64,000 bases of DNA from an uncultured Candidatus Saccharibacteria bacterium. Its GTDB lineage: Bacteria > Patescibacteriota > UBA1384 > XYA2-FULL-43-10 > CAINNR01. A model generated the notes under the pieces. It searched no databases. It saw only the letters and a program-made list of their open reading frames with translations, and was not told the origin of the DNA. The translations under genes and the position numbers were made by a program. Position 1 is the first letter of the stretch; each line of letters begins with the position of its first letter. Shown here piece by piece: positions 3,347 to 23,227 of the stretch. Where the stretch lies: positions 5,537 through 69,536 of the forward strand of contig CAYRLY010000001.1 of assembly GCA_964425445.1 (NCBI GenBank), written 5' to 3'.

Positions 3347-3355
3347 TACATTAAG

Positions 3356-4312
3356 ATGAAAAAAGTAAACATATCGGTGATCATCCCGGTTTATAATGAA
3401 GCGGAGAATATCAATTCTCTTTATTCGGAGTTGAAGGAGGTTTTTGCTCTGACCGATCGCAAACACGAAATTATTTTTGTTAATGATGCCTCCAGAGATA
3501 AGACGTTGGCCGAATTAGAAAAAATTGCCGCCAAAGATAAGCAGGTTGTGGTCATTGATTTTATTCGCAACTTCGGCCAGACGGCGGCGCTTTCGGCCGG
3601 AATTGATAACTCTGTCGGCGAAATTATTATCCCGATGGATGGCGATGGCCAGAATGATCCAGCGGATATTCCGAAATTGGTGCAGAAGATCGACGAAGGA
3701 TTTGCAGTAGTTTCCGGTTGGCGCAAGAACAGGAAAGACGCCTTCATTCGAGTTTTACCCTCTCAAATCGCCAATTGGTTAATCAGGAAGATAACCGGAG
3801 TAAAAATTCATGACAACGGCTGTTCGCTCAAGGCCTATCGCCGCGAGGTAATTGATGGCGTTCAGCTTTATGGTGAGATGCACCGCTTTATCTCTGTCTA
3901 TGCCTCCTGGTCCGGTGGTAGGATCGCCGAGATTGTCGTCAACCACCGTCCGAGAACTTGCGGCAAAAGCAAATATGGTTTTTCCCGAATTTTTAAAGTT
4001 GTGCTTGACCTTCTGGTTATCCGCTTTCTCCATAAGTATATCTCCCGGCCGATTCACTTTTTCGGCAAATACGGGTTTTGGGCGATATTTGTTTCAATAG
4101 TTTTTTCTGCCTGGTCAATCTATCTAAAATTATTCCAAGATCTTTCAATCAATCGTACGCCGTTGCCGGTACTTTCATCGATGTTTTTAATCGTCGGACT
4201 TCAGTTAATATTAACCGGCGTTTTGGCCGAACTCCTGACTCGCACCTACTTCGAGTCACAGGGCAGAAAAGCATATAAAATAAAAAAGATAATTAATGGC
4301 AAAAAAAGCTAA
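3356..4312 (+). CDS. GT2 family polyprenol-phosphate glycosyltransferase (dolichyl-phosphate mannose synthase / ArnC / GtrB-like)
   Basis: N-terminal VSVIIPVYNEAENI motif, DGD(G) motif and two C-terminal TM helices typical of this family. Confidence 0.8.
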   Translation: MKKVNISVIIPVYNEAENINSLYSELKEVFALTDRKHEIIFVNDASRDKTLAELEKIAAKDKQVVVIDFIRNFGQTAALSAGIDNSVGEIIIPMDGDGQNDPADIPKLVQKIDEGFAVVSGWRKNRKDAFIRVLPSQIANWLIRKITGVKIHDNGCSLKAYRREVIDGVQLYGEMHRFISVYASWSGGRIAEIVVNHRPRTCGKSKYGFSRIFKVVLDLLVIRFLHKYISRPIHFFGKYGFWAIFVSIVFSAWSIYLKLFQDLSINRTPLPVLSSMFLIVGLQLILTGVLAELLTRTYFESQGRKAYKIKKIINGKKS

Positions 4313-5267
4313 AACAATTTTAGTTACCGGCTCTGCTGGCTTTATCGGCTTTCATTTAGCAAAGAAACTTCTTGAAGAAGGTGTGGATGTTGTTGGCATT
4401 GATAATTTAAATGATTATTATGATCCGAAATTAAAGACTGATCGTAACAAAATACTGAAAAGCCATGAAAACTATACTTTTCTTAAAGGCGATCTTGCTG
4501 ATGAAAAGTTTATTACTCAACTATTTAAAAAATTTAAATTTGACCAGATCTGTCACTTAGCGGCCCAAGCTGGTGTGCGCTACAGCATTGAAAATCCAGC
4601 CGTTTACATTCAATCAAATATAGTCGGCTTTGCTAATTTGATTGAAGCGACAAAAAACGCCGGCATTAGGAATTTTGTTTATGCTTCTTCAAGTTCAGTC
4701 TACGGCAATAGTGCAAAAGCGAAATTTTCAGTCAAAGATCGCACTGATGATCCGATCTCTCTCTATGCGGCGACGAAAAAAGCCGATGAGCTTATCGCCT
4801 ACACTTATAATCATTTATTTGGATTAAACTGCACGGGTTTGCGTTTTTTTACGGTTTATGGCCCTTGGGGCCGACCGGACATGGCGCCTTTTAAATTTAC
4901 TGGGCGGATTATTGCTGGCAAAGAGATTGAGGTTTACAACTTTGGTAAGATGAAAAGGGACTTCACCTACATCGACGACATTGTTTCCGGAATTATTGCC
5001 GCCCTAAGACGCCCCAGGGGCTTCAAGATTTATAATCTTGGCAATAACCGACCGGTGACCCTAAACCGTTTTATCAAATCTATAGAGGCTGCCTGTGGGC
5101 AAAAAGCGAAGATTAAATACTTGCCGCTACAACCGGGAGATGTTTTGAAAACCGCCGCTGATATTTCCGAATCAAAAAAGGATTTAAAGTTTTCGCCGAA
5201 GATAGATATCGAAGAGGGAATAAGAAAATTTGTTGATTGGTATAAAGAGTATTATGGCAAAAAATAA
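4296..5267 (+). CDS. NAD-dependent epimerase/dehydratase (UDP-glucuronate/UDP-glucose 4-epimerase-like)
   Basis: ILVTGSAGFIGFH Rossmann motif and YAATK catalytic motif (SDR extended family). Confidence 0.8.
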   Translation: MAKKAKTILVTGSAGFIGFHLAKKLLEEGVDVVGIDNLNDYYDPKLKTDRNKILKSHENYTFLKGDLADEKFITQLFKKFKFDQICHLAAQAGVRYSIENPAVYIQSNIVGFANLIEATKNAGIRNFVYASSSSVYGNSAKAKFSVKDRTDDPISLYAATKKADELIAYTYNHLFGLNCTGLRFFTVYGPWGRPDMAPFKFTGRIIAGKEIEVYNFGKMKRDFTYIDDIVSGIIAALRRPRGFKIYNLGNNRPVTLNRFIKSIEAACGQKAKIKYLPLQPGDVLKTAADISESKKDLKFSPKIDIEEGIRKFVDWYKEYYGKK

Positions 5268-6372
5268 AACCAAAATTTTATTTTTAAATTATGAATTCCC
5301 ACCGCTAGGAGGTGGAGCAGGTAATGCAACTAAATATTTATTTTTAGAATTTGCTAAACAAGAAGATCTAGAAATCGATCTAATCACCAGCTCGACCGAC
5401 AAGTTTAAAATTGAGAAATTTGCCAAAAATATTCGCGTCCATTATCTCGATATTGGGAAAAAGGGTAATATTCATTATCAAAGCAACAGTGATCTTTTAA
5501 AATATAGCTGGAAGGCTTATTTTTACGGAAAAGGTCTAATAAAAAAGAAAAAATTTGATTTGACCCACGCTTTTTTCGGTATCCCCTGTGGCTATATCGC
5601 GATGAAACTAGGACTGCCGTATATTGTTTCTCTTCGTGGCAGTGATGTGCCGTTTTATAATCCCAGATTTGCAAAACTAGACAAGCTGGTTTTTCATCGA
5701 TTGTCGCGACGGATCTGGCGGCGGGCGAGAGCGGTAATCGCCAACTCCGAAGATCTAAAAGGATTAGCGATGAAAACTTTCGCGGGTGGGATAGGCGTGA
5801 TTCCTAATGGTGTTGATACCAGCGAATTTAAGCCATTAAAAAACAAAAAAATATCAAACAAGATTCGTTTGATCTCCACCGGTCGTCTTATTGCGCGGAA
5901 AGGTTATCAATATTTGATTCCGGCGTTTAAAGGTTTGAAAAATGTCGAGTTAATTTTGGTTGGTGGTGGTGATCTGCGTAGTGAGCTTGATGAATTAGCG
6001 AGAAAAAATCAGGTAAAAGTCAATTTTGCTGGTGAAGTCAAACATGATGAAATCGTGAAATATCTCCAAAACTCGGATATTTTTGTTCTCCCTTCGCTCA
6101 ACGAGGGGATGAGCAACTCGATACTTGAAGCGATGTCCTGTGGCTTGCCGATAATTACCACTAACACTGGGGGCAGCAAAGAATTGATTGATGGGAATGG
6201 GTTTGTTTTTAAAAAAAGATCAATTGCTTCAATTAAAAAAACGCTGGAAAGATATTTAAAATCACGAGATTTAATTCGAAAACATGGCGAAAAATCACGG
6301 GGAATTGTCCAAGATATGAGCTGGGAAAATGTCTCAAATAAATATAAGAAAATTTATGATCAACTGGCGTAA
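5254..6372 (+). CDS. GT4 family glycosyltransferase
   Basis: C-terminal EGMSNSILEAMSCGLPIITT motif (GT4 E-x7-E region). The ORF track start at 5230 is also possible. Confidence 0.75.
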   Translation: MAKNKTKILFLNYEFPPLGGGAGNATKYLFLEFAKQEDLEIDLITSSTDKFKIEKFAKNIRVHYLDIGKKGNIHYQSNSDLLKYSWKAYFYGKGLIKKKKFDLTHAFFGIPCGYIAMKLGLPYIVSLRGSDVPFYNPRFAKLDKLVFHRLSRRIWRRARAVIANSEDLKGLAMKTFAGGIGVIPNGVDTSEFKPLKNKKISNKIRLISTGRLIARKGYQYLIPAFKGLKNVELILVGGGDLRSELDELARKNQVKVNFAGEVKHDEIVKYLQNSDIFVLPSLNEGMSNSILEAMSCGLPIITTNTGGSKELIDGNGFVFKKRSIASIKKTLERYLKSRDLIRKHGEKSRGIVQDMSWENVSNKYKKIYDQLA

Positions 6373-7699
6373 ACCAACAATACTGGCTTTGCTTTATATC
6401 TCCGGAAGTAAAATTCCGCGCAATCTTAAAATAATTCAAAAACTTGCCAAAAGCAGTAAAAGAGAGATAAGGAAATATCAAAAGGAAAAGCTAAAGAAAC
6501 TTCTATCCCATGCTTATGAAAATGTCCCTTACTATCAACGAGTGCTAAAAGAATCTGGTGTGATTACAAAATCAGGGGAAGTTGATCTGAAAAAATTCTC
6601 CAATATACCAATTCTAACAAAAGATATTATCCGCAAAGAGGGTAAAAATTTATACTCCAAAGATTATAAAAGAAGGGGATATTATAAAAATACCTCCGGT
6701 GGATCGACTGGCGAGCCGGTGGAATTTATACAGGACAAAAAATATTCCGATTGGAATGATGCGACAAAAATATTCTATTTTAATTCCCTAGGTCATGATT
6801 GGGGTGATCCGGAGATAAAATTATGGGGGTCGGATCGGGATATTATAAAAGGTAATTTATCTTTGAAAGATAGAGTGGCTAATTATCTTTATAATCGTCG
6901 TTTTTTTAATTGCTATAATTTCTCAAAAAATAATATGACCTCTTTATTGCGTTTGCATAACAGTTATAGACCAGTGGGATACTGGTCATATATGGAGGCT
7001 GTGAGTGAATTCGCTGATTTTATTGTCGAAAACAATTTGAAAGTGTTCAGCCCTAAATATATTGTATCGACCATTGGTCCATTGGAAGATAATGTCAGAA
7101 AAAAAATTTCCCAGACATTCTCTTGCCCTGTATTTGACCAATACGGGTCGCGAGAAGTGGGATTTATTGCGGCTGAGTTTCCCAAAAGTGAAGGGAAGTT
7201 ATTCTTTCCCTGGTTTAATTATGTTGAGAATACTAATGGGCTAGTAAAAAATGTCATTGTAACTAATTTGGCCAATTTTTCAATGCCACTTATTCGTTAT
7301 GACATTGGTGATGCCGCAATAATTAATTATGGGAAGATTAAACGATTGTGTGGTCGCACATTAGGTTTTTTTTACAAAAAAGATGGGTCATTGATCCACA
7401 CTCACTTTTTGGTTCAAACGTTGTTTTTTGTTGAATGGATAAAACGTTTTCAGATTATCCAGCCTAATTTTGGGTCTATTGAAATTAAAATAGAAAAAAA
7501 AGAAAATGTGTTAGCCAGCCGAAGGGGTCAGCAAGAAATACTGCAAAAGGTTAAAAAACTAACTGGGGATGAGATTGAATGTAAGATAAAATTTGTAAAA
7601 AGAATATGTTCGCAAAAAAATGGGAAATATACATATACAATTTGTAAAATACCTAAAGAAGATTTAAAGAAGCTAAAGGAAAAAATAGATGGAAGTTAA
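6329..7699 (+). CDS. CapK / PaaK-like adenylate-forming enzyme (coenzyme F390 synthetase family)
   Basis: TSGGSTGEPV adenylation motif with family-typical length; sits inside the glycan locus. The start may be an internal Met at about 6356. Confidence 0.65.
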   Translation: MSQINIRKFMINWRKPTILALLYISGSKIPRNLKIIQKLAKSSKREIRKYQKEKLKKLLSHAYENVPYYQRVLKESGVITKSGEVDLKKFSNIPILTKDIIRKEGKNLYSKDYKRRGYYKNTSGGSTGEPVEFIQDKKYSDWNDATKIFYFNSLGHDWGDPEIKLWGSDRDIIKGNLSLKDRVANYLYNRRFFNCYNFSKNNMTSLLRLHNSYRPVGYWSYMEAVSEFADFIVENNLKVFSPKYIVSTIGPLEDNVRKKISQTFSCPVFDQYGSREVGFIAAEFPKSEGKLFFPWFNYVENTNGLVKNVIVTNLANFSMPLIRYDIGDAAIINYGKIKRLCGRTLGFFYKKDGSLIHTHFLVQTLFFVEWIKRFQIIQPNFGSIEIKIEKKENVLASRRGQQEILQKVKKLTGDEIECKIKFVKRICSQKNGKYTYTICKIPKEDLKKLKEKIDGS

Positions 7700-9206
7700 A
7701 AAACTAAAAATTAATCCTGATTTTAAAAGCCATAAAATTGCTAAATCAGTAATTTACAAGCTAAAAAAATATCTTAAGCCCAAAAGTTCGGTGCTAGATA
7801 TTGGTGCAGGTGATGGTTGTCTCCTTGACCTAATTAGCAAAACATTTAAAAATGTTAATGTTTTTGGAATTGATCCCGAGCCAAAATCAAAGAAGATAAA
7901 GAAAGCTGGAATCGAAAAATTGCCGTTTCCTGATCAAAGCATTGATCTTGTGGTTTGTACCGATGTTATTGAACATCTAACTGATTCTCAACTGCACAAA
8001 GGTATCAAAGAGATTAGTCGGGTGCTAAAAGAGGGGGGCAGAGCAATTATTACCACAGTTGTGAATGAAAATTTCAACAGACAACTCTGCTTGTGCCCTA
8101 GATGCAGTAAAGTGTTTCACAAGATTGGCCATCAGCAGATCTTTGCTCCAGAAGAATTGGTTCAAATTTTTTCCTCAAATAACCTAAAAGTTATTGAGAC
8201 ATTTAATTTTAACTTAACATTATTCGCAAAATACCCGATGTTAATAAGACTGGCTGAAAGACTGAATTTCCATAAGTTATTTTCTGGTGAAATTAGATAT
8301 CGACTAAAAAAAGATTTCTTGTTAGTTGTCCAAAAGGAAGTAAATCACAAAGATTGTCCAGTTTGTGATTCCAAGAATTGCAATATTGAGCGAAAAATCG
8401 GTGGTTATTATTTTTTGCGCTGTATGGAATGCGGTTTTATTTATTCTAATCTATCCAGCGAAGAAATTGAAAAAGAGAATTTTTCGTATGACAAAGAAGC
8501 GATCAAAAAGTATAAAGACACTCAAACAAAATTTGATATTGTTTGGTTTGGTGAATTAGCAAAAAGAATTAATTCACGTTTTAAACAAGATAGCACTAAA
8601 AGAGTATTAGATATTGGCTGTGGGAACGGAATATTGTTAAACGAATTTAAAAAACTTGGCTGGGAGACTTGTGGACTTGATCCGTCGCCTTGGTCTGTAG
8701 GCTTTGCAAAAAAATATAATTTCAAGTTATACAGAAAAGTTATAGGTGAAGAAAAGTTGCCTCAAGAATACTTTGATGCAATTGTCTGTACTTCCACATT
8801 AGAGCACATTGAAGAACCAAAAAAATTCATTAGTCAAATATTGCCATTATTAAAGTCAAAAGGCGTGCTGTATTTTTCTGGAATGCCGAACTATAATTCA
8901 TTAGCAGTAATTTTGGGATTTTCAGATTTCTCTAAAAACGCTCCGCCGCAACATGTCAGTTTTTTCAAACGGCAGATTTTTAAAACATTAGTTTCAAATA
9001 GCGGGTATAAAATCACTGTTAGAAGCTACGGTTTTCCTGGGTTGTATGGTTTTTATCGCAAGATCAAAATAATTCGCCGATCGGGTGGTCGATCGTCTGG
9101 TAATCGTAATTCTTTATTGGCTAGATTGTCTGTTCTTATTAATTATTATTCAGGTCGACTTTTTGGTTTGGGCGATAAACTGGAGGTTATAATTGAAAAA
9201 AAATAA
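7689..9206 (+). CDS. tandem double class-I SAM-dependent methyltransferase with internal Cys4 zinc-ribbon
   Basis: Two glycine-rich SAM motifs (LDIGAGDGCLL and LDIGCGNGILL), each followed by a DVI/EHI motif; CPVC...CMEC zinc-ribbon between the halves. Confidence 0.7.
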   Translation: MEVKKLKINPDFKSHKIAKSVIYKLKKYLKPKSSVLDIGAGDGCLLDLISKTFKNVNVFGIDPEPKSKKIKKAGIEKLPFPDQSIDLVVCTDVIEHLTDSQLHKGIKEISRVLKEGGRAIITTVVNENFNRQLCLCPRCSKVFHKIGHQQIFAPEELVQIFSSNNLKVIETFNFNLTLFAKYPMLIRLAERLNFHKLFSGEIRYRLKKDFLLVVQKEVNHKDCPVCDSKNCNIERKIGGYYFLRCMECGFIYSNLSSEEIEKENFSYDKEAIKKYKDTQTKFDIVWFGELAKRINSRFKQDSTKRVLDIGCGNGILLNEFKKLGWETCGLDPSPWSVGFAKKYNFKLYRKVIGEEKLPQEYFDAIVCTSTLEHIEEPKKFISQILPLLKSKGVLYFSGMPNYNSLAVILGFSDFSKNAPPQHVSFFKRQIFKTLVSNSGYKITVRSYGFPGLYGFYRKIKIIRRSGGRSSGNRNSLLARLSVLINYYSGRLFGLGDKLEVIIEKK

Positions 9207-10140
9207 CCAGAAAGAAATCTTGTTCAGCATAGCCAAAGTTTTCATCGCAGCCGGGCTTATTTTTTGGATATTCAAGAAGATTGATTTGAATTCAGTTAAA
9301 AATTTGTTTGTATCAGCTAATTGGATTTATCTCGTGTTGCAATTGCTTGTGATCACTGTTGGTGTAATTGTTAGCTCTCTTAAATGGAAAGCAATATTGG
9401 ATTTTTATCATGTTTATTTCCGGCTATCAAAGCTAATTATTTCCTACTGGATAGGATTTTTTTTAAATTCATTTTTACCTACAAGTATTGGTGGAGACGT
9501 CTATAAATATCATGTTTTGGGCAGAAAAAAACCGGAAGAAAAATTAAAAATTGCCTCATCGGTCATCATAGAAAGGGGGATAGGCTTCCTCACTCTATTT
9601 TTTGTTATGGTAATATCTCTCTTTTTTCTTCCAAATTCATCAAACTTTATTTTTTTCCTCGCCTTGTTATTGTCGGTATTATCTATATCTGGCATTATCT
9701 ATTCTTCAATTTTGTCCAAAAGAAAATATAAGATTAAGAGAAATAGCCGCTTTAAACTTATTAATTACTTTTATCAATTCTGTAATCATATTTTAGAAAT
9801 TAGCGATAAAAATTTGCTGGCCTATACATTTTTTCTTTCCCTGGTTTTTGTTGGTTTATCTGTAATTTCAAACCAATTATCCTTCTTGATCGTCGGCTAT
9901 CGTATGCCGTTGATCTATTTTTTAATTGCAGTGCCGATAATTAATTTTTCAAAACTTATTCCTTTCTCGATTGACTCGATTGGAATCAGGGAAGCGACGG
10001 GCGTTATGATATTTTCCTTTTTCGGTGTACCAAGTGAAGTCACATTGACAGCTATGATTGTCGGTAGAGTTTCTAGTTATCTGTTTAGTCTGTCGGGTGG
10101 TATTATGTATTTGATTCGAAAATTTACTAAAATAATTTAA
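9193..10140 (+). CDS. flippase-like / lysylphosphatidylglycerol-synthase TM-domain family membrane protein
   Basis: About 8 TM helices with the GGDVYKYHVLG motif characteristic of the UPF0104 flippase-like family. Confidence 0.6.
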   Translation: MKKNNQKEILFSIAKVFIAAGLIFWIFKKIDLNSVKNLFVSANWIYLVLQLLVITVGVIVSSLKWKAILDFYHVYFRLSKLIISYWIGFFLNSFLPTSIGGDVYKYHVLGRKKPEEKLKIASSVIIERGIGFLTLFFVMVISLFFLPNSSNFIFFLALLLSVLSISGIIYSSILSKRKYKIKRNSRFKLINYFYQFCNHILEISDKNLLAYTFFLSLVFVGLSVISNQLSFLIVGYRMPLIYFLIAVPIINFSKLIPFSIDSIGIREATGVMIFSFFGVPSEVTLTAMIVGRVSSYLFSLSGGIMYLIRKFTKII

Positions 10141-10142
10141 AA

Positions 10143-11444
10143 ATGTTTTTAAAAGAATTTACTAAAAAATTATTAGAAAATCGCATACTGATAATTTTAA
10201 TTCTCGTGGGATTTTTTGTGCGCTTACTTTTTATGCCTAGTGCAACCTTTATCGATCTCTTGTCATCGACTTGGCGGGAGATGGTTTTTGTCAATGAAGG
10301 TCGAGCGATTGTTTCAAATATGAATGAGTTTATTGTCGCGATCTATATGAAGGCTTTTAGCCCGCTTTTTTTACCTCTCAATCAAATTATTGGGATTTTC
10401 CGCGAAACCGCCGAACCAAATCTTTTCAAAAATGCTTTGCCGACTTATGATGTTTTTGTCACTTTTCCTCACGCTCCGCGAATGCTTTTTTTGTTGAAAA
10501 TTCCTTATATTCTATTTGATCTAGGAGTTTTATACTTGTCACTTCGTTTTTTCTCCGAAGACAAAAAGAAGAAGTTACTCGTGGCGATTTGGGCTTTCGG
10601 CTTACCGCTTATTTTCGCTGCTTACATCTGGGGGCGATTTGAGACACTACCGATATTTTTTGCCTTTTTGGCTTTTTACTTTGCATACAAAAGGCCGAAG
10701 ATTTTTTGGCCAGCAATTTTATCGCTAGCTGTTGCCGTAGTTTTTCGTGGTGCATTTGCCTTTATGTTGCCGGCATTTTTGCTTTATTTCTTCTATCAAA
10801 ATCGCCAGCGCTTTTTGCCCCTAATCTCTTTCGTTTTTAGCTACCTAGTAGTCGGGAAAATATTTCAGTTAATAATTTCTGCATTTCGATCAACTCCTTC
10901 ATTTGCTACAAATTTATCGATTTCACATTTTTCACTTGGTTACATTGACGAATTTATCTTAACCGGGCGAATTGGTATTGGGCCAGGCGAGGTGTCGCTT
11001 TTTATTCTCCTAGTCGCCGCAATGATTTATCTCGCATATTCAGGTAGGAAGAAATTCAATTTTGAGCAGCTAGTCTATTTCTCTTCTTTGTTTATGCTCG
11101 CGTTCTTTCTTTCGTCTCGTGTCCACACACACTATGTTGTTTGGTTGGTGCCGGCACTCTCCCTCGCCAGCGTTTATCGGCCTAAAATAATCATTCCATC
11201 GATTGCAATGATAATATTCTATTATTTTTATTATTTTGTTCTTTTTGAGCCTCAGGTAATGCTCGAGCTTTTTGCACCACTAAATCCACAATTTTTTATG
11301 CACCTGGCGCCGATAAGTTCTCAACAGTTTTTTATGAATCACCGAATTGAAAATATTATCATAGTTGCGCGTTCGCTATTCTCAATTTTGGTTGTTTTTA
11401 TCATGTTTTTATTAATTAGAAAAAATGAGAATAAACTATCTTAG
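10143..11444 (+). CDS. polytopic membrane protein, putative GT-C-type glycosyltransferase (DUF2029-like)
   Basis: At least 10 TM helices throughout; placement in the glycan locus. The family assignment is an inference. Confidence 0.35.
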   Translation: MFLKEFTKKLLENRILIILILVGFFVRLLFMPSATFIDLLSSTWREMVFVNEGRAIVSNMNEFIVAIYMKAFSPLFLPLNQIIGIFRETAEPNLFKNALPTYDVFVTFPHAPRMLFLLKIPYILFDLGVLYLSLRFFSEDKKKKLLVAIWAFGLPLIFAAYIWGRFETLPIFFAFLAFYFAYKRPKIFWPAILSLAVAVVFRGAFAFMLPAFLLYFFYQNRQRFLPLISFVFSYLVVGKIFQLIISAFRSTPSFATNLSISHFSLGYIDEFILTGRIGIGPGEVSLFILLVAAMIYLAYSGRKKFNFEQLVYFSSLFMLAFFLSSRVHTHYVVWLVPALSLASVYRPKIIIPSIAMIIFYYFYYFVLFEPQVMLELFAPLNPQFFMHLAPISSQQFFMNHRIENIIIVARSLFSILVVFIMFLLIRKNENKLS

Positions 11445-12105
11445 ATTATTAATTATAATTGTCATTTTAGGAGCGGTTTTGCTGATTGTCCGTTTCGGCT
11501 CGCTTGAGCTTGTACTCTCGGAGAACAAAAATTTTATTTACAGTGATTACTATGTAGAGACTCGCAATCAAGAAGTTCTGAATAAAAAAGGGAACACTGT
11601 ATCATTCAAAATTCATTCAGTCCGCAACGGGTTGTCAAAAGTTACACTCTCAACGTTGCGGCCACACTACTTGTTTGAAGATGAAGATTTAAAAATAAAT
11701 CTTTCAATATACTATTTGGATCAGGACGAGGGGAGAGAGCAGAAATACTCAGCTGATTTCCCAGCTTCACGATTGCGCAATTTTACTACTTTCGATTTTC
11801 CAAATCTTGAAGACTCAAAAGATAAAGATATTCTGTTTGAGTTCACTGCCGTAGAGGATGCAGTTGATGAGCGTCATGTTATAGAAATAGTTGTTAATGA
11901 CACTGATCCAGACGAGAGAGTCACTACCGGTCCACGACTTTTTTACAACGTTAAACTCTACGATCTATGGAGTGAATATCTCGGAATAGCCAGCAAAGAT
12001 TTTAAATTTTTTAAATATTACTACTTATTGGTAGGGTTTGTCTCATTAGCAATTATTTTTCTTTTGATTATTGATTATAAAAAGATTGACAAGTCTCGAT
12101 GCTAG
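11425..12105 (+). CDS. hypothetical protein with N- and C-terminal TM helices
   Basis: ORF track; start overlaps the previous gene. Confidence 0.4.
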   Translation: MRINYLRLLIIIVILGAVLLIVRFGSLELVLSENKNFIYSDYYVETRNQEVLNKKGNTVSFKIHSVRNGLSKVTLSTLRPHYLFEDEDLKINLSIYYLDQDEGREQKYSADFPASRLRNFTTFDFPNLEDSKDKDILFEFTAVEDAVDERHVIEIVVNDTDPDERVTTGPRLFYNVKLYDLWSEYLGIASKDFKFFKYYYLLVGFVSLAIIFLLIIDYKKIDKSRC

Positions 12106-13565: not shown

Positions 13566-14675
13566 ATGCCTAGAGTGCAAATAGTACAGCCTATGATGAC
13601 ACCGACCTTCTTGGGTTGGGCGGCACTTCGGGGTATCGATTGGGGGAAGTGGAGCGATGTCAAGAAGTTCTTGGAGCTGATTGGCTACGGCATGGTCTGT
13701 AACCTGTCGATGGTTCTCTCACCGTGGGGATCCGGAGGCAGGATGAAGGGAGTGGAAGTCGCAGCCCGAGTAATGCCTATGGCTAGGCAGCAGGGCCGAG
13801 TCATCGTCAACGCTGGTAGTGATCCGTCCTACGATGCCCTTGTGAGTGCAGCCGACCTAGCTGGTGGCCAATTCAATGTCAAAGAGCTGGTACTCTGCAT
13901 TCTCTCAATGTTGGATCTTGATCCACTTCGAGAGAACGATCTACACATCGATCTTATCTCGCCTGCACTGCCGGGTGCCTCGCTTGGTACATCTGCCAGT
14001 GTACTAGTCGCAATCTTGAGCGCCTTCCTTGGCGACAGTTACACGGCGGACGAGATTTGGCTGATGGCCTTGCGGGCTGAGTACGAGATTGCTCGCCGTA
14101 ATACTGGCAACCAAGATCATATCGCCGCTATTATGGGAGCCAGAGAAGAAATAAAGACTCCAGCCAGACTAATCACCATCAACGATCTCTTCGATGTGGA
14201 GATCGAACACTTGGTGGTAGGCCCCATGATCTCTGCCGTCCTGCCAAATACTCTGGTGTCGGTCATCGGGGCCCATGACAGCTCCGATACTCACCAGAGG
14301 CTACAGGACGAGCTCGAGGGCGATCCGGAAATGGCGCGGGACAAACTCTGCGCAATGCGCAACACCGCCGTCATGGCCGCCAACGCTTTTCGTAGCGATT
14401 CACCAGATCAGCTATTTGCCTCGATTGACGCTTTGCTGGCTGCTCAGCAGTCTTTGAGTACTGGCCTGATAGGACCGTTCCACTGGAAGATAATTCAGGA
14501 CGCCAGGGCATACGGAGGCTATTCCGGTGTGCCTGGTGCCGGTGGCGACGGGGGGTCAGTGATCACTGTTTTTCAGGAAGCTGACTCCATGAGATGTTTC
14601 GCAGAGTCGATTCAGCTGGCTTTGCCGGACATCCGCCTTTTCCAGGCCGGCTACCCCGGCATCAACTTCGTGTAG
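13566..14675 (+). CDS. GHMP-family sugar/small-molecule kinase on a GC-rich islet
   Basis: GHMP ATP-binding motif LPGASLGTSASVLVA; RBS AAGGAG upstream; composition and codon use differ markedly from the neighbours. Confidence 0.65.
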   Translation: MPRVQIVQPMMTPTFLGWAALRGIDWGKWSDVKKFLELIGYGMVCNLSMVLSPWGSGGRMKGVEVAARVMPMARQQGRVIVNAGSDPSYDALVSAADLAGGQFNVKELVLCILSMLDLDPLRENDLHIDLISPALPGASLGTSASVLVAILSAFLGDSYTADEIWLMALRAEYEIARRNTGNQDHIAAIMGAREEIKTPARLITINDLFDVEIEHLVVGPMISAVLPNTLVSVIGAHDSSDTHQRLQDELEGDPEMARDKLCAMRNTAVMAANAFRSDSPDQLFASIDALLAAQQSLSTGLIGPFHWKIIQDARAYGGYSGVPGAGGDGGSVITVFQEADSMRCFAESIQLALPDIRLFQAGYPGINFV

Positions 14676-14702
14676 TGACCCGTTGGTCACTGCCTCTCTT
14701 TT

Positions 14703-14733
14703 GTCCCGACACCATGTCGGGACACTTTTTTTT
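14703..14733 (+). terminator. intrinsic terminator after the GHMP kinase gene
   Basis: gtcccgac-acca-tgtcgggac hairpin followed by a T8 run. Confidence 0.75.
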
Positions 14734-14764
14734 ACCCTGTAAATTTGCTAGTATCGAGGGAGTG

Positions 14765-16927
14765 ATGAAGGAATTTTCTATAAAAAGTTGGTTTAGAAAA
14801 TACTGGCCGCTTGTCGGCTATTTTTTGATTTCGATAATATTCCTCTATCCGGTTCTGATTCAAAGGGGAGTACCGTTTAAATATGATTGGCTTTGGCCCC
14901 TTTTTGATATGAATGAATATTGGCGGGTGATCGCCGACAAGAGTAGCTTTGGTCTGGTTTCATCACTTGGGAAATATGCCAATTCTTTCTTCGGCCTCTT
15001 TGGTTGGTTGCATATTTCGCCAAATATTGCCCTTAAAATATTTTTACTCCTGATCCATACTGCCTCTGGTTACGGTTTTTATCTCCTGGTTTCTAGAAGG
15101 ATCAAATCAGCCGCCGCTGCATTTATCGCCGGTATCGCCTACGCTTTTTCGCCCTATATATTTATTCGAACGATCGTCGGATTTATATATTCATTGATCG
15201 CTTATGCCTCATTGCCGTTTTTCTTAAATATCTTTATAAACCATAAGAAGAAAAAAATCCTTGATTTTCTGCTGATGGGTTTACTTTTTTCTTTGGTAGC
15301 TTCACAGATTCAGGCGGGGATACTTCTGGTGTTTCTGGTGATCGTCATCAGCTTCTCCGAGAGAAAGAAGATTGTATTTCGATTAAAAGAGCTTGTCCTA
15401 TTGTTAGCTTCTGTCTTGATCGTCGCTTTGCCTTGGATTATTTACCTTCTGTTTATCGGTGGCAATGTGCAACCCATTGATGGTGGGCAGGTGACGACGC
15501 TAAATTATATCGCCAATTTGCCTCATAGTTTGCGTAATGTATTGTTTTTCTCTGATCACATAATTACCAGGGATTACTTTTATTCATTTGCCAGAGAGCC
15601 GATAGTAATCATCGGTTTTGTTCTTTTTTATCTGGTTGCTCTATTTTCACTCTTCGATAAAAAGAACCGATCCCTCGTGCTCTCCCTGATAATTTCGACC
15701 TTGATAATAATTCCATTTTCTATCGGGCCGACCAAAATTTTCACCGGTTTTTACACCTTCGTCTTCAATCATCTTTCGCAGCTGGCTGTCTTTCGCGAAA
15801 CCTATCATTTCCAGTTTCTGCTCTCGTTTAACTTTATCGCCTTATTTGCCTTTGGCCTTTCGTATATTTTCAAAAATTTAAGCAACAAAAGACCCTTCTT
15901 CTGGCTGATAAAAGTAATTGCTGCCTCATCAATAATAATTGTGATTGCACCTTATTTGGGTCTTGATTATGCCGGCTATTTTCGCCTTCAAGAGATTCCA
16001 GATGAATACCATCAAGCAGATGAGTTTTTTCAAGAAAACGCCGACTATTGTAAAAAAGCTTATTACCCACCAAACTTGGGATTTGTCCGATTCGCTTCTG
16101 ACCCGACAGCAGAAACTAGTGCCTCAAACTCGGATATTATTGCTTGGGATTTTGGCTTGCCTCGAGTAACCGATGCCGCCTCAGTTTTGTCGATCGCCGG
16201 TGATGAAATGTATCAGCGCAATCATCTGACGTCACAATTTTTGGAATTTTCTGACAATGGTGAATTTGCCGCTCTGGCCAAGGAGCAGGGAGTTGACTGC
16301 GTCATCATCCGTGATGATCTTACTAGCTTATATTTTTTGGCGAATAATGTCTGGCGTGATCCGTCATTTGATGTTCGCTTGAAGTGGATGAATCAAGATA
16401 TGTTGTCATTGGCCGAAAGTAAGATCGGTCTTCGTCTTGATAAAAAATTCGGGGGCAAAATTTACCTTTATAAAGTTGAGTCAGATAAGAAATATGAGGC
16501 AAGTAGGTTGATCGATCAAGTTCCCGATGGCATAAAATTGCCAATTACTGATTGGGCGAATAATTATGATTGGTATACCGAGGGTTGGGCGAGGGGACGG
16601 TACAATTTTTGGCGCAAACACCTTTTTGCTCAACTTGCACAGGATTTTATTTATACAAACAAATCCGACTCCGAAGTTAGCGGAAAGATCGCCGAGAGCG
16701 GCTCCTATGACCTGGTAATTAGATATTTGGATGGAGGAGAGGAGGGGAAATTCGAAATCCGAATATCGAAATTCGAAACAATTATCGAGAAAAAATCGGG
16801 GGAAGAAAGACTTGTCGTCAAAAATCTTGGAGCGATTGATATCAAGAAAGGCGATACAATCACAATTAAAAATACATCTGGCGAGAACGCTATCGCCGAT
16901 CTGTTGTTGGTCGGGAGTAAGGAGTAA
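14765..16927 (+). CDS. large polytopic membrane protein with a C-terminal extracytoplasmic domain (YfhO/GT-C-like), hypothetical
   Basis: Start at ATG 14765 preceded by GAGGGAG. The ORF track start at 14594 lies inside the upstream GC-rich gene and terminator and is rejected. About 13 TM helices followed by a soluble domain of about 250 aa. Confidence 0.55.
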   Translation: MKEFSIKSWFRKYWPLVGYFLISIIFLYPVLIQRGVPFKYDWLWPLFDMNEYWRVIADKSSFGLVSSLGKYANSFFGLFGWLHISPNIALKIFLLLIHTASGYGFYLLVSRRIKSAAAAFIAGIAYAFSPYIFIRTIVGFIYSLIAYASLPFFLNIFINHKKKKILDFLLMGLLFSLVASQIQAGILLVFLVIVISFSERKKIVFRLKELVLLLASVLIVALPWIIYLLFIGGNVQPIDGGQVTTLNYIANLPHSLRNVLFFSDHIITRDYFYSFAREPIVIIGFVLFYLVALFSLFDKKNRSLVLSLIISTLIIIPFSIGPTKIFTGFYTFVFNHLSQLAVFRETYHFQFLLSFNFIALFAFGLSYIFKNLSNKRPFFWLIKVIAASSIIIVIAPYLGLDYAGYFRLQEIPDEYHQADEFFQENADYCKKAYYPPNLGFVRFASDPTAETSASNSDIIAWDFGLPRVTDAASVLSIAGDEMYQRNHLTSQFLEFSDNGEFAALAKEQGVDCVIIRDDLTSLYFLANNVWRDPSFDVRLKWMNQDMLSLAESKIGLRLDKKFGGKIYLYKVESDKKYEASRLIDQVPDGIKLPITDWANNYDWYTEGWARGRYNFWRKHLFAQLAQDFIYTNKSDSEVSGKIAESGSYDLVIRYLDGGEEGKFEIRISKFETIIEKKSGEERLVVKNLGAIDIKKGDTITIKNTSGENAIADLLLVGSKE
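16748..16778 (+). repeat. in-frame heptanucleotide tandem repeat (CGAAATC / CGAATAT / CGAAATT units) inside the membrane protein gene
   Basis: aaattcgaaatccgaatatcgaaattcgaaac, translated GKFEIRISKFETI. Confidence 0.6.
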
Positions 16928-16945: not shown

Positions 16946-18193
16946 TTAGACTCTAGTTCTTTTTCTCCGTCGAATGAGGATTATGAGGACTGCAAGGAGC
17001 GCAAGAGCAAGCACTCCGGCAGCGATGGTTATTATCAGATTATAATTTTTACTATCTTTAACCGCTTCAGCAACGCTTTTTGGTGGGTTTATATCATCCT
17101 CAGTCAAAATATTTATCGATCCACCTTTGGCTTGTGAGATTTCGAAGATAATCTCATCACTAACGGGTGTCAATACCTTCTCTTTCTGCCCTTGGACACT
17201 GAGTTTATAATGGCCGGCGGGTATAAAATAATCCATCTCGAGAGTGAAATTGCCATCCTCGTCAGACTCAATCTCAAGTTTTTTACCCTCTGGGAGTGCT
17301 GGCGTTGGGGTTAGAGTGATTTTAGCTAAATAATTTGGCTCGATGATTCCGGAGATCTTCAGCCCAGAGACGGTGCCATCATCAATCTTGTTTATAAAAT
17401 TTTCCATCTTCTCGATCTTGATCGATCTTGGTTTACTTAGATTCTCATCTACTTTCGGATCAGGCTCTTTGATATTTATCTGAAAATGGGTTGTAGAGCC
17501 CCAACCGTCAGCATTTTGCGCTCGAATATGAAAATAATGAGTCCCAACCGGTTGATTGTCATAGCTTGCAGAGGTGTTGGCTGATGTCGATTTTGCCGGC
17601 GGGGTTGTCGTTGCGTTTTGATCGAGAAGATAAGAAAATGCGGTGACACCAGATGCTTTCGTCCATGAAAGGTCAATTTTGGTTGCTTCGTAGGATTCTG
17701 CTGGATTTGGATGAGATGATGAAGTCACATTTATTGCTCCCGGAGGCGTTGGTGCTCGGGTAATTGAATAGGAAGCGCTTCCTGCACCGGTACCAACTTC
17801 GGCACCGTCATTCGCCATCCGCACAGAGGATACTGTCACCGCTCCGCTACCGACTCCGGTCGCTTTTAGTCTTATTGTCGCCACCCTCATCGAAGAGACT
17901 GCCGGCACCAGCATCCCCTTGAAGTGGCCCCCGTTAGCTGGGATTGAAATCCAAGTTGCTCCGCCAGCGGCGAAAGAAACAATCGATACCGGCCCAGAGA
18001 CCGATATTGTTCCCTCGATGGCATTAAAAGTTGCCCCCGAAGCATCAACAGTGACAGTAAATGTCTGACCGACGGTCACGTTTCCGCCACCAGAAGCATA
18101 AATACCGGCTGCTGCTGCGTTCATTGGCAATATTAGAAAATAAAATACACTCGAAACAGTCAGCATTGTCGAAATCAGTCTTTTCATCAGCAT
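16946..18193 (-). CDS. cell-surface protein with signal peptide, Ig/FN3-like beta-rich domains and a C-terminal TM anchor with basic tail
   Basis: N-terminal hydrophobic leader; Thr/Ser-rich beta repeats; C-terminal IITIAAGVLALALLAVLIILIRRRKRTRV. Confidence 0.5.
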   Translation of the reverse strand: MLMKRLISTMLTVSSVFYFLILPMNAAAAGIYASGGGNVTVGQTFTVTVDASGATFNAIEGTISVSGPVSIVSFAAGGATWISIPANGGHFKGMLVPAVSSMRVATIRLKATGVGSGAVTVSSVRMANDGAEVGTGAGSASYSITRAPTPPGAINVTSSSHPNPAESYEATKIDLSWTKASGVTAFSYLLDQNATTTPPAKSTSANTSASYDNQPVGTHYFHIRAQNADGWGSTTHFQINIKEPDPKVDENLSKPRSIKIEKMENFINKIDDGTVSGLKISGIIEPNYLAKITLTPTPALPEGKKLEIESDEDGNFTLEMDYFIPAGHYKLSVQGQKEKVLTPVSDEIIFEISQAKGGSINILTEDDINPPKSVAEAVKDSKNYNLIITIAAGVLALALLAVLIILIRRRKRTRV

Positions 18194-18223: not shown

Positions 18224-19204
18224 TTAGCTTCCCCAAGCTCCAGCTAATATCGACAGATCAAGAAGGTCGACAGTACCATCAGAATTTAGATCAGCATCGG
18301 CGTTATTGCCACCCCAGTGAGTTGCAATCAAGGAGAGATCTAGTAGGTCGACATTCCCATCACGGTTTGCATCGCCAGTTTTTCTTTCTGCTGGTGGCGG
18401 TGTATCAGAGACCAAAACTGGATATGGGACAGAAATATATTCAGGTATGGTATAAGCTTTCATCCAGCTTCCCTTGGTGTTTAAGAAACTCTCAATTTCC
18501 GCTGCGCTTAATGGGTTAGCATTTCGGAAATTATTGTCAGAAATAATGTTTGTTGACGAATAATCCCCACCGTTTGGTGTCCCACCCCACCAGGATATCC
18601 AGTTGGTGTAGAAAGATGACCCGGTATTATAAGAAGAATAATGGGGGGTGTATTTATAAAGTGCACAAGATCCGGCGTTGGCAGTAGCAATTGTTCCGCC
18701 ATCAACAGAAACGGAGTTATTTCCTTCGCAATAGGTTCCATTTGCTGGGTTGCCATCGCCAGCAAGGTTTCGAAGCTGGGCGGTTGCGTAGGCGATCTGC
18801 TGACCGACGCCGCCATAATTTTCGGCGCGGTATGAGTAATCCGGCTTGTTGTATTTAGTATCAGTACAGTCTGTGCCCAAGAGCAAACAATTCGCCATTC
18901 TTTCATCGTAGTTGTAGAAAAGAGGCCAAGCCCTGGTGGTGTCTGAAGACGGTTCGGATCTAGTAATTGCTGAGCTCTCTTTTTGCAGCATAATCAAGAT
19001 AAGCCTGGGATTTATGTCGTGTTGTGCTGACTCGTCATAGATCAATTGTGCAACAGTCTTATTAAAAAAGGTATCAATATAGGCTTGTCTGGCGTTAACG
19101 TAACGAAGCTCGACATGGTCAGCTAGCACTTTTATCGGCGCAATCAAAAACACGACCAGCAAAATTGCTACAATTAGACTGTAATTTTTTGTTTTTGCCC
19201 TCAT
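18224..19204 (-). CDS. secreted protein with a C-terminal double dockerin-type repeat
   Basis: Signal/TM leader; C-terminal DANRDGNVDLLDLSLIATHW ... DLNSDGTVDLLDLSILAGAW, a dockerin type I calcium-binding repeat pair. Confidence 0.6.
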   Translation of the reverse strand: MRAKTKNYSLIVAILLVVFLIAPIKVLADHVELRYVNARQAYIDTFFNKTVAQLIYDESAQHDINPRLILIMLQKESSAITRSEPSSDTTRAWPLFYNYDERMANCLLLGTDCTDTKYNKPDYSYRAENYGGVGQQIAYATAQLRNLAGDGNPANGTYCEGNNSVSVDGGTIATANAGSCALYKYTPHYSSYNTGSSFYTNWISWWGGTPNGGDYSSTNIISDNNFRNANPLSAAEIESFLNTKGSWMKAYTIPEYISVPYPVLVSDTPPPAERKTGDANRDGNVDLLDLSLIATHWGGNNADADLNSDGTVDLLDLSILAGAWGS

Positions 19205-19205
19205 T

Positions 19206-19700
19206 TTACCCTCTCGTTGCCTCCTGATCTTCTGGAAAGAAATATTCTTTTTCTAGAGTATCAAGTTTGGAGTTTAATATTTCACTATCTGGATTGGCTG
19301 TGATCCCAGCCTCCAGAGTTTTTTTCGCTTCTTCTAGTTGACTTAATAATATCTCCGCTTCTGACTTGAGCGAATAGTAGCTACTGTTATTCGGATTCGC
19401 GGCAATTGCTTGATTCAGCTTGTTTATCGCTTCTTGATAATTTTTGTTTTCAAAATCTTCTACCGCAGAAACATAAAGGACTTGATCAGGGGACAGCCCA
19501 TCATCCTCGTCTTGATCTGACTGGTTCACGACATCTTCCTGGATCGGCGATTCCTCTGCTGGGGTATCTTCGCTATCTTTGGCGCCAGTTTCCGTTTTCT
19601 GTTCTTTTCCAATCAAGTAAAGCCCAGCGACAATGAAAATCACTGTAATCACCAAGAGGGTGATGAAATAATAAAGGGTTCGGAAGTTTTTCCCGTTCAT
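19206..19700 (-). CDS. membrane-anchored TPR-repeat protein
   Basis: N-terminal TM helix, acidic linker, TPR-like NKNYQEAINKLNQAIAANPNNSSYY. Confidence 0.5.
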   Translation of the reverse strand: MNGKNFRTLYYFITLLVITVIFIVAGLYLIGKEQKTETGAKDSEDTPAEESPIQEDVVNQSDQDEDDGLSPDQVLYVSAVEDFENKNYQEAINKLNQAIAANPNNSSYYSLKSEAEILLSQLEEAKKTLEAGITANPDSEILNSKLDTLEKEYFFPEDQEATRG

Positions 19701-19832
19701 ATTTACCTCAAAAAGTATTATATCATATTAAAATTCTACTTTGAATCTATGACAGAACACTCTATTTAAAAAAATATCAGCTCTGGTAAACGAAAAAATC
19801 TATACCGACAGCATACATTTAGTTTTTTTCTA

Positions 19833-22249: not shown

Positions 22250-23227
22250 ATGAAAAATTTTTTTTACTCGCTGGTTTTGGTGTCAATTATTGTCCTCGGT
22301 GTCTCGACGACCAAAAATAGCTTTGCAGAAAGTGATTCTTTATCTTTGTCTCCGAACTATCCTTACAAAATTGTTGAAGTTCAACCAAGCGGGGAGACGG
22401 GCGACTTCTCCGGTGAGAGTTCAAATTTTGACCCAAGAAAAGTGGTCGCTGATTTAGGCCTAACTGTTTATCCGGAAGATCGGGTTTCGGCCTTTCCCGA
22501 TCCGAAGATTGGTATCGGTTCGGTTATCAATCTGGAACGAGCACCGGTTATAAAATTGCGCGATGGTAAGAAGGAATTAGAGCTGCGCAGCTGGGTTACA
22601 ACTGCTGGTGAGCTTTTGGCAGAAAAGGGAATCGAGCTTGGTCTTGATGATAAAACAAACTTTCGCTCTGATAGTAGAATCTATGACGGTATCGAATTAT
22701 CAATAATTCGAGTTGCTATTACGAAAGTGGTTGAAAGTGAGGCAATAAATTTTAAAACAATCAAAAAAGAGGATCCGAAGCTAGATAAGGGTAAAACTCG
22801 AGTTGAAACTGCCGGTGTAAAAGGGGAAAGAGAGCTAACATATCAGGTCACGAGAGAGGATGGAGTCGAAGTCTCTAGGGTACTCGTTGGTAATGAAGTG
22901 GTAAAGGAGCCGGTCAATCAAGTCGAGTATTACGGGACAAAGCCAGTGATCACGGTTCGATGTCGTTATAATGACACTGTTTTGGCTGCTTCGATAAAAT
23001 ACAAACAGGATCCGAACACAATTTGCAGTTTGATGATGAAAGAAAGCAATGGTAACCCGGGTAGCATCAATCCAAACGGTTATTATGGGCTTTTTCAGTA
23101 TGAGCTTGGCTTATGGACATCTGCCTCCTCAAAAGCTGGTTATAGCGGTGCCGATTGGAGCAACCCGACGGCGCAAATCTATACCACCTGTTATTTGTTC
23201 TCAATCGGTCAATCCTGGCGCTGGTAA
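22250..23227 (+). CDS. secreted DUF348 / G5 / transglycosylase-like domain protein (RpfB/YabE-like)
   Basis: Signal peptide; G5 domain (KTRVETAGVKGERELTYQVTREDGVEV); C-terminal ESNGNPGSINPNGYYGLFQY resuscitation-promoting-factor-like transglycosylase motif. Confidence 0.7.
   Translation: MKNFFYSLVLVSIIVLGVSTTKNSFAESDSLSLSPNYPYKIVEVQPSGETGDFSGESSNFDPRKVVADLGLTVYPEDRVSAFPDPKIGIGSVINLERAPVIKLRDGKKELELRSWVTTAGELLAEKGIELGLDDKTNFRSDSRIYDGIELSIIRVAITKVVESEAINFKTIKKEDPKLDKGKTRVETAGVKGERELTYQVTREDGVEVSRVLVGNEVVKEPVNQVEYYGTKPVITVRCRYNDTVLAASIKYKQDPNTICSLMMKESNGNPGSINPNGYYGLFQYELGLWTSASSKAGYSGADWSNPTAQIYTTCYLFSIGQSWRW

Follow-up and report, generated by a model that had tools for sequence, protein, structure and literature searches.

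What does a secreted protein that ends in two dockerin-type repeats bind to in a bacterium belonging to the candidate phyla radiation (CPR)? This question is raised by the open reading frame (ORF) 18224..19204 on the minus strand of a 64,000-nucleotide (nt) stretch of contig CAYRLY010000001.1 (positions 5,537 to 69,536), from an uncultured member of the Patescibacteriota; this whole stretch, hereafter called the window, had been the subject of a preliminary description made from its letters. The ORF has an ATG start and encodes a secreted enzyme-dockerin protein of 326 amino acids (aa). Module comparisons and structural models indicate that this gene and its two neighbours on the same strand probably form a monovalent, non-cellulosomal cohesin–dockerin tethering cassette, which would display a glycan-cleaving enzyme. 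The genes and modules of the putative cassette are the following, a slash marking an inferred signal peptide cleavage site.

19206..19700, minus strand: gene 1, tetratricopeptide repeat (TPR) protein, 164 aa, with an N-terminal transmembrane (TM) helix (aa ~9-29), an acidic linker and a predicted extracytoplasmic TPR region (aa ~75-145)
18224..19204, minus strand: gene 2, enzyme-dockerin protein, 326 aa
19121..19204, minus strand: predicted enzyme signal peptide, aa 1-28, MRAKTKNYSLIVAILLVVFLIAPIKVLA/D, from sequence and hydropathy
18401..19120, minus strand: lysozyme-like catalytic domain of an unclassified family, aa 29-268
18377..18400, minus strand: Pro-rich linker, aa 269-276, PPPAERKT, where the predicted local distance difference test score (pLDDT) falls to about 85-88
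18227..18376, minus strand: dockerin module, aa 277-326, two 12-residue Ca2+ loops with a helix after each
16946..18193, minus strand: gene 3, cohesin anchor, 415 aa, beta-rich surface protein
18113..18193, minus strand: predicted anchor signal peptide, aa 1-27, ...LILPMNAA/AAGIY, the homologues having a common ...LA/AGG junction
17753..18112, minus strand: cohesin module, aa 28-147, beta-sandwich
17465..17752, minus strand: FN3-like stalk domain, aa ~148-243
17096..17464, minus strand: third, Ig-like stalk beta-sandwich, aa ~244-366, modelled strands 256-363 with pLDDT >92
16949..17044, minus strand: predicted C-terminal membrane anchor, TM helix aa ~384-408 and cytoplasmic basic tail RRRKRTRV

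Identity of the dockerin and cohesin modules

The preliminary description had reported two dockerin repeats at the C-terminus of a secreted protein and named the Pfam Dockerin_1 model as a check. Both repeats were found (DANRDGNVDLLDLSLIATHW, aa 279-298, and DLNSDGTVDLLDLSILAGAW, aa 306-325) behind a predicted signal peptide, and Dockerin_1 (PF00404) matched aa 277-320 (E = 3.1e-7), its score of 30.9 bits exceeding the gathering cutoff of 22.9. The Ca2+ loops correspond to DANRDGNVDLLD and DLNSDGTVDLLD, and the AlphaFold2 (AF2) model places helices at 287-295 and 314-322; loop positions 1, 3, 5, 9 and 12 are Asp or Asn in 42-48 of 48 non-redundant members, in both repeats. Compared with the PDB, the family profile retrieved solved dockerins (2y3n_B with E = 8e-8, then 4fl4_A, 2yik_A, 1daq_A and 2vn5_B), and a fold search superposed the model on solved dockerin folds. 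Dockerin_1 also matched 59 of the 73 family members. The C-terminus of the ORF is a genuine dockerin, of type I; since the window protein scored 19.7 against a cutoff of 29 with the NCBIfam dockerin_GC model, it does not belong to that subtype.

The module is internally symmetric, recognition positions 10/11 being Leu-Leu in each repeat, and such symmetry has been linked to the dual binding mode of type I dockerins (PMC12484212). Given this identity of recognition residues in the two repeats, a dual orientation of binding is likely here as well. It is scarcely credible that the C-terminal repeat is instead an EF-hand-like, Ca2+-binding stabiliser with no role in cohesin binding: EF-hand Pfam models overlap the repeats weakly, but they remain far under their own cutoffs whereas Dockerin_1 exceeds its own, and the structural matches to dockerins, together with the strict coupling and co-evolution with a cohesin-fold neighbour described below, speak against this view.

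A cohesin-like partner had also been proposed, and the adjacent gene had been described as a surface Ig-like protein. The connection between the two, missed at that stage, is provided by the fold of the latter. In the AF2 model of this anchor protein (mean pLDDT 90.9), a signal peptide precedes three beta-sandwich domains, and a helix (384-414) with the RRRKRTRV tail forms the C-terminus. Its N-terminal beta-sandwich domain superposes on solved cohesins and displays the cohesin fold, with 2w1n ranked first by Foldseek (E = 1.2e-8); at the level of the model, this domain is clearly a cohesin in structure. The anchor protein gave no score above threshold with any Pfam or NCBIfam model. For the third stalk domain, weak Big_13, CarboxypepD_reg or SdrD_B matches were obtained in homologues. 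The first strands of the cohesin ('YASGGGxxTVGQTFTVTVxASGATF', window 18020-18100, aa ~32-57) resemble framework 1 of immunoglobulin heavy-chain variable domains over 26 residues (E 0.005-0.3, dozens of weak nanobody or Fab matches), which we judged to be a chance beta-strand similarity.

Regarding its attachment, the model indicates that the anchor is held in the bacterium's own membrane by the C-terminal TM helix. Sortase- or exosortase-type anchoring was considered and rejected, the LPXTG, PVV-CTERM and MYXO-CTERM models all scoring under cutoff. In addition, a sortase-type signal is unlikely because the C-termini of 30 anchor homologues share no conserved sequence ahead of the TM helix and carry cytoplasmic tails of varied length. 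Of the two locations initially envisaged for the enzyme, the cell's own surface or a host-cell scaffold, a membrane-anchored cohesin favours the first, while nothing indicated the second.

Gene pairing and co-evolution of the two modules

To follow the modules across genomes, 66 related loci were fetched, the first 63 of which were scanned with hidden Markov models (HMMs) built from our own alignments of the lysozyme-like, dockerin, cohesin and stalk modules. Pairing was counted in dereplicated loci having at least 700 bp of downstream sequence. All 28 enzymes with a terminal dockerin have a same-strand cohesin gene directly downstream, against none of the 10 dockerin-less relatives (Fisher p = 2e-9, uncorrected for phylogeny); the latter carry an alternative C-terminal module, either DUF5648 or a domain of ~250 aa matching no named family. 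The pairing is kept at 34-43% identity despite different surrounding genes (loci L003, L004 and L064). In the window, the same HMMs detected a single dockerin and a single cohesin. More than 100 homologues were found for the enzyme-dockerin protein and for the anchor alike, almost all of them unnamed and originating from metagenome bins of Candidatus Berkelbacteria and other Patescibacteria.

Co-evolution was analysed on 48 non-redundant enzyme/anchor pairs, 17 taken from inspected loci and 31 matched through identically sized contigs in two homologue tables. Pairwise dockerin distances correlated with those of the neighbour's cohesin (r = 0.76), of the stalk (r = 0.61) and of the enzyme's own catalytic domain (r = 0.46). 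In partial Mantel tests, the dockerin–cohesin correlation persisted when the catalytic domain and the stalk were controlled for (r = 0.56, p ≤ 0.0005). Dockerin no longer correlated significantly with the stalk given the catalytic domain and the cohesin (r = 0.07), nor with the catalytic domain given the cohesin and the stalk (r = 0.06).

According to positions 10/11 of both repeats, the dockerins fall into a Leu-Leu (LL) class of 23 members, which includes the window, a Ser-Thr (ST) class of 17 and 8 others; Ser-Thr at these positions is the arrangement of the type I pair of Clostridium thermocellum. LL and ST dockerins differ at positions 10, 11, 18, 19 and 22 of both repeats, the classical specificity positions, and in linker length. 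Columns that distinguish the two classes number 19 of 121 in the cohesin, 2 of 253 in the enzyme and 0 of 223 in the stalk. In the window cohesin they correspond to residues 57-60, 62, 84, 90, 92, 94-96, 98-100, 102, 123, 125, 127 and 132, with none in residues 28-56, 63-83, 103-122 or 133-147. This distribution is patchy, with the i/i+2 spacing expected of one sheet face, and falls on strands 3, 6 and 8 (numbering inferred from the order of the DSSP string, not from superposition), which may correspond to part of the 8-3-6-5 sheet face by which cohesins bind dockerins. Cohesin identity reaches 0.75 within the LL and ST classes and 0.64 between them, compared with 0.64 and 0.62 for the background domains, in which 29 of 40 nearest neighbours belong to the same class.

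Could these patterns reflect linkage, so that the dockerin's true partner would be a cohesin encoded elsewhere in the genome or carried by another cell, with a different ligand for the cohesin-fold domain of the neighbour? Contiguous dockerin and cohesin segments could be co-inherited or swapped jointly, the cohesin scan covered 64 kb of the genome, and metagenomes contain other dockerin-bearing proteins (P0118-P0120). Against this stand the perfect coupling of presence and absence, the location of the dockerin changes at canonical recognition positions and the interleaving of the background domains between classes. Moreover, no class signal is present in the anchor signal peptide or in the first ~29 residues of the cohesin, both of which are encoded between the two modules. 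A single swapped DNA tract was therefore judged an unlikely cause of the covariation, and the patchy columns, combined with a class-neutral intervening segment, argue for selection on the interface. We regard mere linkage as very improbable. Based on the gene pairing and module co-evolution, the window's dockerin in all likelihood binds the cohesin encoded next to it.

Some loci depart from the simple gene pair. In L014, tandem enzyme-dockerin paralogues (L014:503-1576 and L014:1622-2602), both of the ST class, lie upstream of a single cohesin-anchor gene; following this duplication, two plugs could thus share one socket in that genome. Small genes are inserted between the dockerin and cohesin genes elsewhere: four-helix-bundle, 23S-rRNA-IVP-like ORFs (L006:6976-7311, L007:6952-7320 and L025:2061-2396), a GIY-YIG nuclease-like ORF (L011:6992-7306) and an ORF of 197 aa (L033:1984-2574). 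We rejected these ORFs as components of the system and consider them unrelated insertions; small selfish genes seem to land recurrently at this intergenic position.

The catalytic domain and its candidate substrates

The N-terminus of the enzyme has the features of a Sec-type signal peptide, with a hydrophobic core at aa ~9-24 and an inferred cut after VLA at aa 28; AF2 models a helix at 8-21 followed by a low-confidence linker. The domain behind it had been described as possibly lysozyme- or SLT-like, from the motif LIMLQKESSA. The lysozyme-like part of that suggestion holds, whereas the SLT HMM found no match. The model shows an alpha-helical lysozyme fold in which a glutamate occupies the C-terminal end of a cleft-lining helix, as in the lysozyme-like superfamily (GH23, GH73, GH19, g-type lysozyme and GH124). 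This residue, Glu76 (nt 18977-18979), lies within LQKESS at the end of helix 66-77 and is invariant across the family. Gln136 and Tyr185-Thr186-Pro187 are also invariant in the 73-member alignment, while Trp93, Tyr97 and GGxGQQxAY (aa 131-139) reach at least 90% conservation there and are invariant in a domain-only alignment of 35 sequences. The domain contains four cysteines, at 106, 113, 159 and 180. Its best structural matches in a fold search were peptidoglycan glucosaminidases and lytic transglycosylases, and the matches included Tse3, a muramidase effector of the type VI secretion system (T6SS).

No Pfam or NCBIfam family was assigned to aa 29-268 of the window protein, and no Pfam family to this domain in 73 close or 131 remote relatives; a domain-only profile gave no match among PDB sequences at E ≤ 10. 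Two memberships were rejected: SLT (GH23, PF01464), which matched none of the 73 close members (apart from one SLT_4 at E = 0.074) or of the 131 remote ones, and GH73 (PF01832), the Glucosaminidase HMM of which was not matched by the enzyme domain. When aligned by hhalign with the SLT domain encoded elsewhere in the window, QKES falls on the catalytic KES, without reaching significance (probability 1.7%, E = 0.03). Judged by its modelled fold, the enzyme is a member of the lysozyme-like superfamily, belonging to no described family.

Searched exhaustively with phmmer, 1.84 billion representative proteins yielded 404 relatives at E ≤ 1e-3, 57 of them at E ≤ 1e-10; this family without a Pfam model comprises about 400 clusters at 50% identity. 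Modules added to the remote relatives include the PcsB coiled-coil (5), SH3b (2-3), LysM, Peptidase_M23 and Peptidase_S11, as well as Ig-like, lectin, DUF5648 and dockerin domains, a repertoire typical of peptidoglycan hydrolases and their retention modules. In the window and in all six contexts examined, the enzyme gene lies within a surface-glycan biosynthesis locus, with genes of the GT2, GT4, Wzy_C, flippase, epimerase/rml, GT9 and GT-C types. We lean slightly towards peptidoglycan, rather than the glycopolymer encoded by the locus, as the substrate.

The same tethering could also serve an enzyme for which the neighbouring glycosyltransferase, Wzy and flippase genes produce the substrate, a surface glycopolymer that it would trim or release in the manner of the glycoside hydrolases encoded in exopolysaccharide operons. 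The genomic setting would fit, but the modules fused to remote relatives (notably the PcsB coiled-coil, SH3b, LysM, M23 and S11) and the top structural matches are those of peptidoglycan-cleaving enzymes, which makes this alternative possible but doubtful.

Whose wall would be cleaved is a further question. The enzyme could be an offensive tool, directed from its stalk, during episymbiosis, against the wall of a host or a prey bacterium and not against that of the producer. The lineage, Berkelbacteria within the Patescibacteria, makes this conceivable, as the few cultivated Patescibacteria, mostly Saccharibacteria, grow as epibionts. In a Saccharibacterium, host glycans have been put forward, speculatively, as the target of an essential dockerin-domain envelope protein, the partner of which is not named (PMC10633639). 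With three beta-sandwich domains, the stalk would also project the enzyme outward, and the fold match to Tse3 points in the same direction. Conversely, no immunity-like gene is conserved beside the enzyme, the conserved neighbours being the TPR gene, the cohesin anchor gene and glycan-biosynthesis genes; the lifestyle of Berkelbacteria is not established, and the data do not distinguish a self from a non-self target. We consider an offensive role improbable, and favour an enzyme held on the producer's own surface that acts on wall glycan.

Two peculiarities of the family were observed. First, a segment '..MSAxEINxFLxxKGSWLxxYxIPEYxSVPYP' (window 18401-18530, aa ~226-266) is C-terminal in the window protein and its close relatives, and the same '..MSAxEINxFL..' segment stands N-terminal, ahead of the core, in distant relatives (P0058, P0073, P0075-P0117, L003 and L015 compared), an apparent circular permutation. 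The ends of the domain are adjacent, since strands 30-39 and 256-265 pair in the AF2 model. Secondly, dockerin-less relatives of ~535-600 aa (L016, L019-L021, L061-L063 and L065) end in repeated units of ~60 aa of the type 'G..VY.I.NG.KR.I.S...F...GF.W.DV..VS...L...P.G'; these units are matched by no Pfam model and may be an alternative wall-retention repeat.

A putative tethering cassette, its parallels and its surroundings

The minus-strand neighbours had been described as an Ig-like surface gene and a TPR gene forming a small surface-protein block. This layout is borne out by the beta-rich product of 16946..18193 and by the TM helix and TPR of 19206..19700. The TPR gene stop and the enzyme gene start are separated by 1 nt, and the anchor gene starts 30 nt downstream of the enzyme-dockerin ORF. 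With the two candidate signals below, the TPR, enzyme-dockerin and cohesin anchor genes look like one three-gene operon.

19717..19745, minus strand: candidate operon promoter, 17 nt upstream of the start of the TPR gene, with TTCAAA, a 17-nt spacer and a TG-extended TATAAT
16880..16897, minus strand: terminator-like hairpin downstream of the anchor gene, within the 3' end of the convergent GT-C gene

The TPR protein matched TPR_19 (E = 2e-8), and TPR_2 at cutoff. Of 44 dereplicated loci, 39 have a homologue gene directly upstream of that of the enzyme, in the presence as in the absence of a dockerin; the cohesin anchor accompanies the dockerin variant only. As the TPR gene adjoins the enzyme gene in both situations, TPR protein and enzyme form the older unit. 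The E. coli TPR lipoprotein NlpI scaffolds hydrolases, and by analogy the TPR envelope protein genetically coupled to the enzyme here could be an adaptor or a regulator.

The following mechanism can be proposed. The enzyme, made of a lysozyme-like domain, a Pro-rich linker and a dockerin, would be exported through Sec, as would the anchor, which its C-terminal TM helix would keep in the membrane. The single cohesin would lie distally, at the tip of a stalk formed by the FN3 domain and one more beta-sandwich. Folded around two Ca2+ ions, the dockerin would dock on this cohesin, thereby holding the enzyme non-covalently on the producer's own surface at a fixed distance from the membrane. There, Glu76 could act as the general acid, and a beta-1,4-linked wall glycan would most likely be cut, with peptidoglycan strands as the first candidate and the glycopolymer of the flanking genes as the second. 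The membrane TPR protein would serve the enzyme as an adaptor or a regulator.

Several points weigh against this account. On the cohesin side, Pfam Cohesin (PF00963) gave no match in the window anchor at E ≤ 1, the 25 families found most often in 58 anchor homologues do not include Cohesin, and two PDB profile searches with the anchor found no cohesin. Regarding the covariation, 31 of the 48 pairs depend on the size-match heuristic and not on contig inspection, although mispaired entries among them would weaken the correlation and not create one; the dockerin- and cohesin-coding segments are also contiguous (about 600 bp), and joint recombination could add to the signal. The candidate promoter is purely a consensus match (10 of 12 positions and the extended -10), as is the terminator-like hairpin, a weak one. 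Finally, the substrate signals conflict, the fusions indicating peptidoglycan and the genomic context a surface polysaccharide, and for this reason both are still candidates.

The closest parallels to such a cassette are OlpA and OlpC of Clostridium (Acetivibrio) thermocellum, in which a single type I cohesin on a surface anchor likewise binds dockerin enzymes directly. These proteins are anchored by SLH domains and serve many cellulosomal enzymes encoded elsewhere. Here, in contrast, a C-terminal TM helix stands behind an FN3/Ig stalk, the lysozyme-like client is encoded immediately upstream in a 1:1 arrangement, and no cellulosome gene was found in the window. Non-cellulosomal cohesin–dockerin pairs also occur in glycoside hydrolases of Clostridium perfringens (the cohesin-FN3 of NagJ/GH84C and the cohesin of the GH33 sialidase) and in Archaeoglobus fulgidus. 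In C. perfringens, the modules join secreted, toxin-like glycosidases enzyme to enzyme, whereas the cohesin described here would sit on a dedicated membrane anchor, at 8-16% sequence identity and beyond the reach of the Pfam Cohesin model.

With cellulosomes and amylosomes, the cassette shares the two module folds and the Ca2+-loop architecture of the dockerin. A cellulosomal or scaffoldin identity was nevertheless rejected: each anchor bears one cohesin for a single client, the cargo is a lysozyme-like, putative wall-glycan hydrolase, and neither a carbohydrate-binding module nor a carbohydrate-active enzyme for plant polysaccharides was found. A functional resemblance exists to autolysins with LysM, SH3b, GW, SLH or choline-binding repeats, in which a non-catalytic module also retains a potentially lethal hydrolase at the surface. 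Remote relatives of the window enzyme indeed carry LysM, SH3b or the PcsB coiled-coil in the place of the dockerin. Retention would differ here in being protein-to-protein, on a dedicated membrane stalk, instead of binding to a wall polymer.

Our full-text literature search returned no cohesin–dockerin system described in Berkelbacteria or other CPR bacteria, in which little is known about how the envelope is built and remodelled. The locus offers a testable hypothesis of how a reduced genome may confine a potentially lethal wall hydrolase, while the known cohesin–dockerin paradigm is not overturned. It also illustrates that fold and gene context together can bring to light cohesins missed by sequence models, a point made as well by a 2026 study of ruminococcal cellulosomes (PMC13463774). 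The dockerins are compact, at about 50 aa, have one cognate cohesin apiece and fall into at least two apparently non-cross-reacting classes, so they could serve as orthogonal tethering parts. A broader proposal would see the TPR protein, dockerin-enzyme and cohesin stalk as a previously undescribed, three-part control of wall hydrolases in CPR bacteria, with docking replacing the wall-binding repeats that confine an autolysin or anti-host lysin, and with plug and socket re-keyed repeatedly. We think this rather unlikely. If true, it would provide naturally orthogonal, minimal cohesin–dockerin pairs and, should the host wall be the target, a molecular tool of episymbiosis.

Other genes of the window also concern the cell surface. 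Another protein predicted to be wall-lytic is encoded at 22250-23227 on the plus strand, after a UvrD-type helicase gene, and combines DUF348, G5 and SLT/transglycosylase domains in an Rpf/YabE-like architecture; a neighbourhood of helicase and G5 protein also flanks the cassette in L001 and L002. At positions 1-12000, a glycan-biosynthesis block comprising GT2, epimerase/dehydratase, GT4, double methyltransferase, LPG_synthase_TM and several family-less ORFs has a GC content of 0.33-0.39, against 0.40-0.46 in the rest of the window, and may represent a surface-glycan island that is variable or was acquired horizontally. The plus-strand ORF 14594-16927 encodes a polytopic GT-C glycosyltransferase of 777 aa with an AftD-like N-terminal domain (E = 1.6e-10) and converges on the cohesin gene, 18 nt separating the two stop codons. 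Its first ~57 codons overlap the ORF 13566..14675 and look non-coding, and the true start is probably the Met of 'MKEFSIKSW'.

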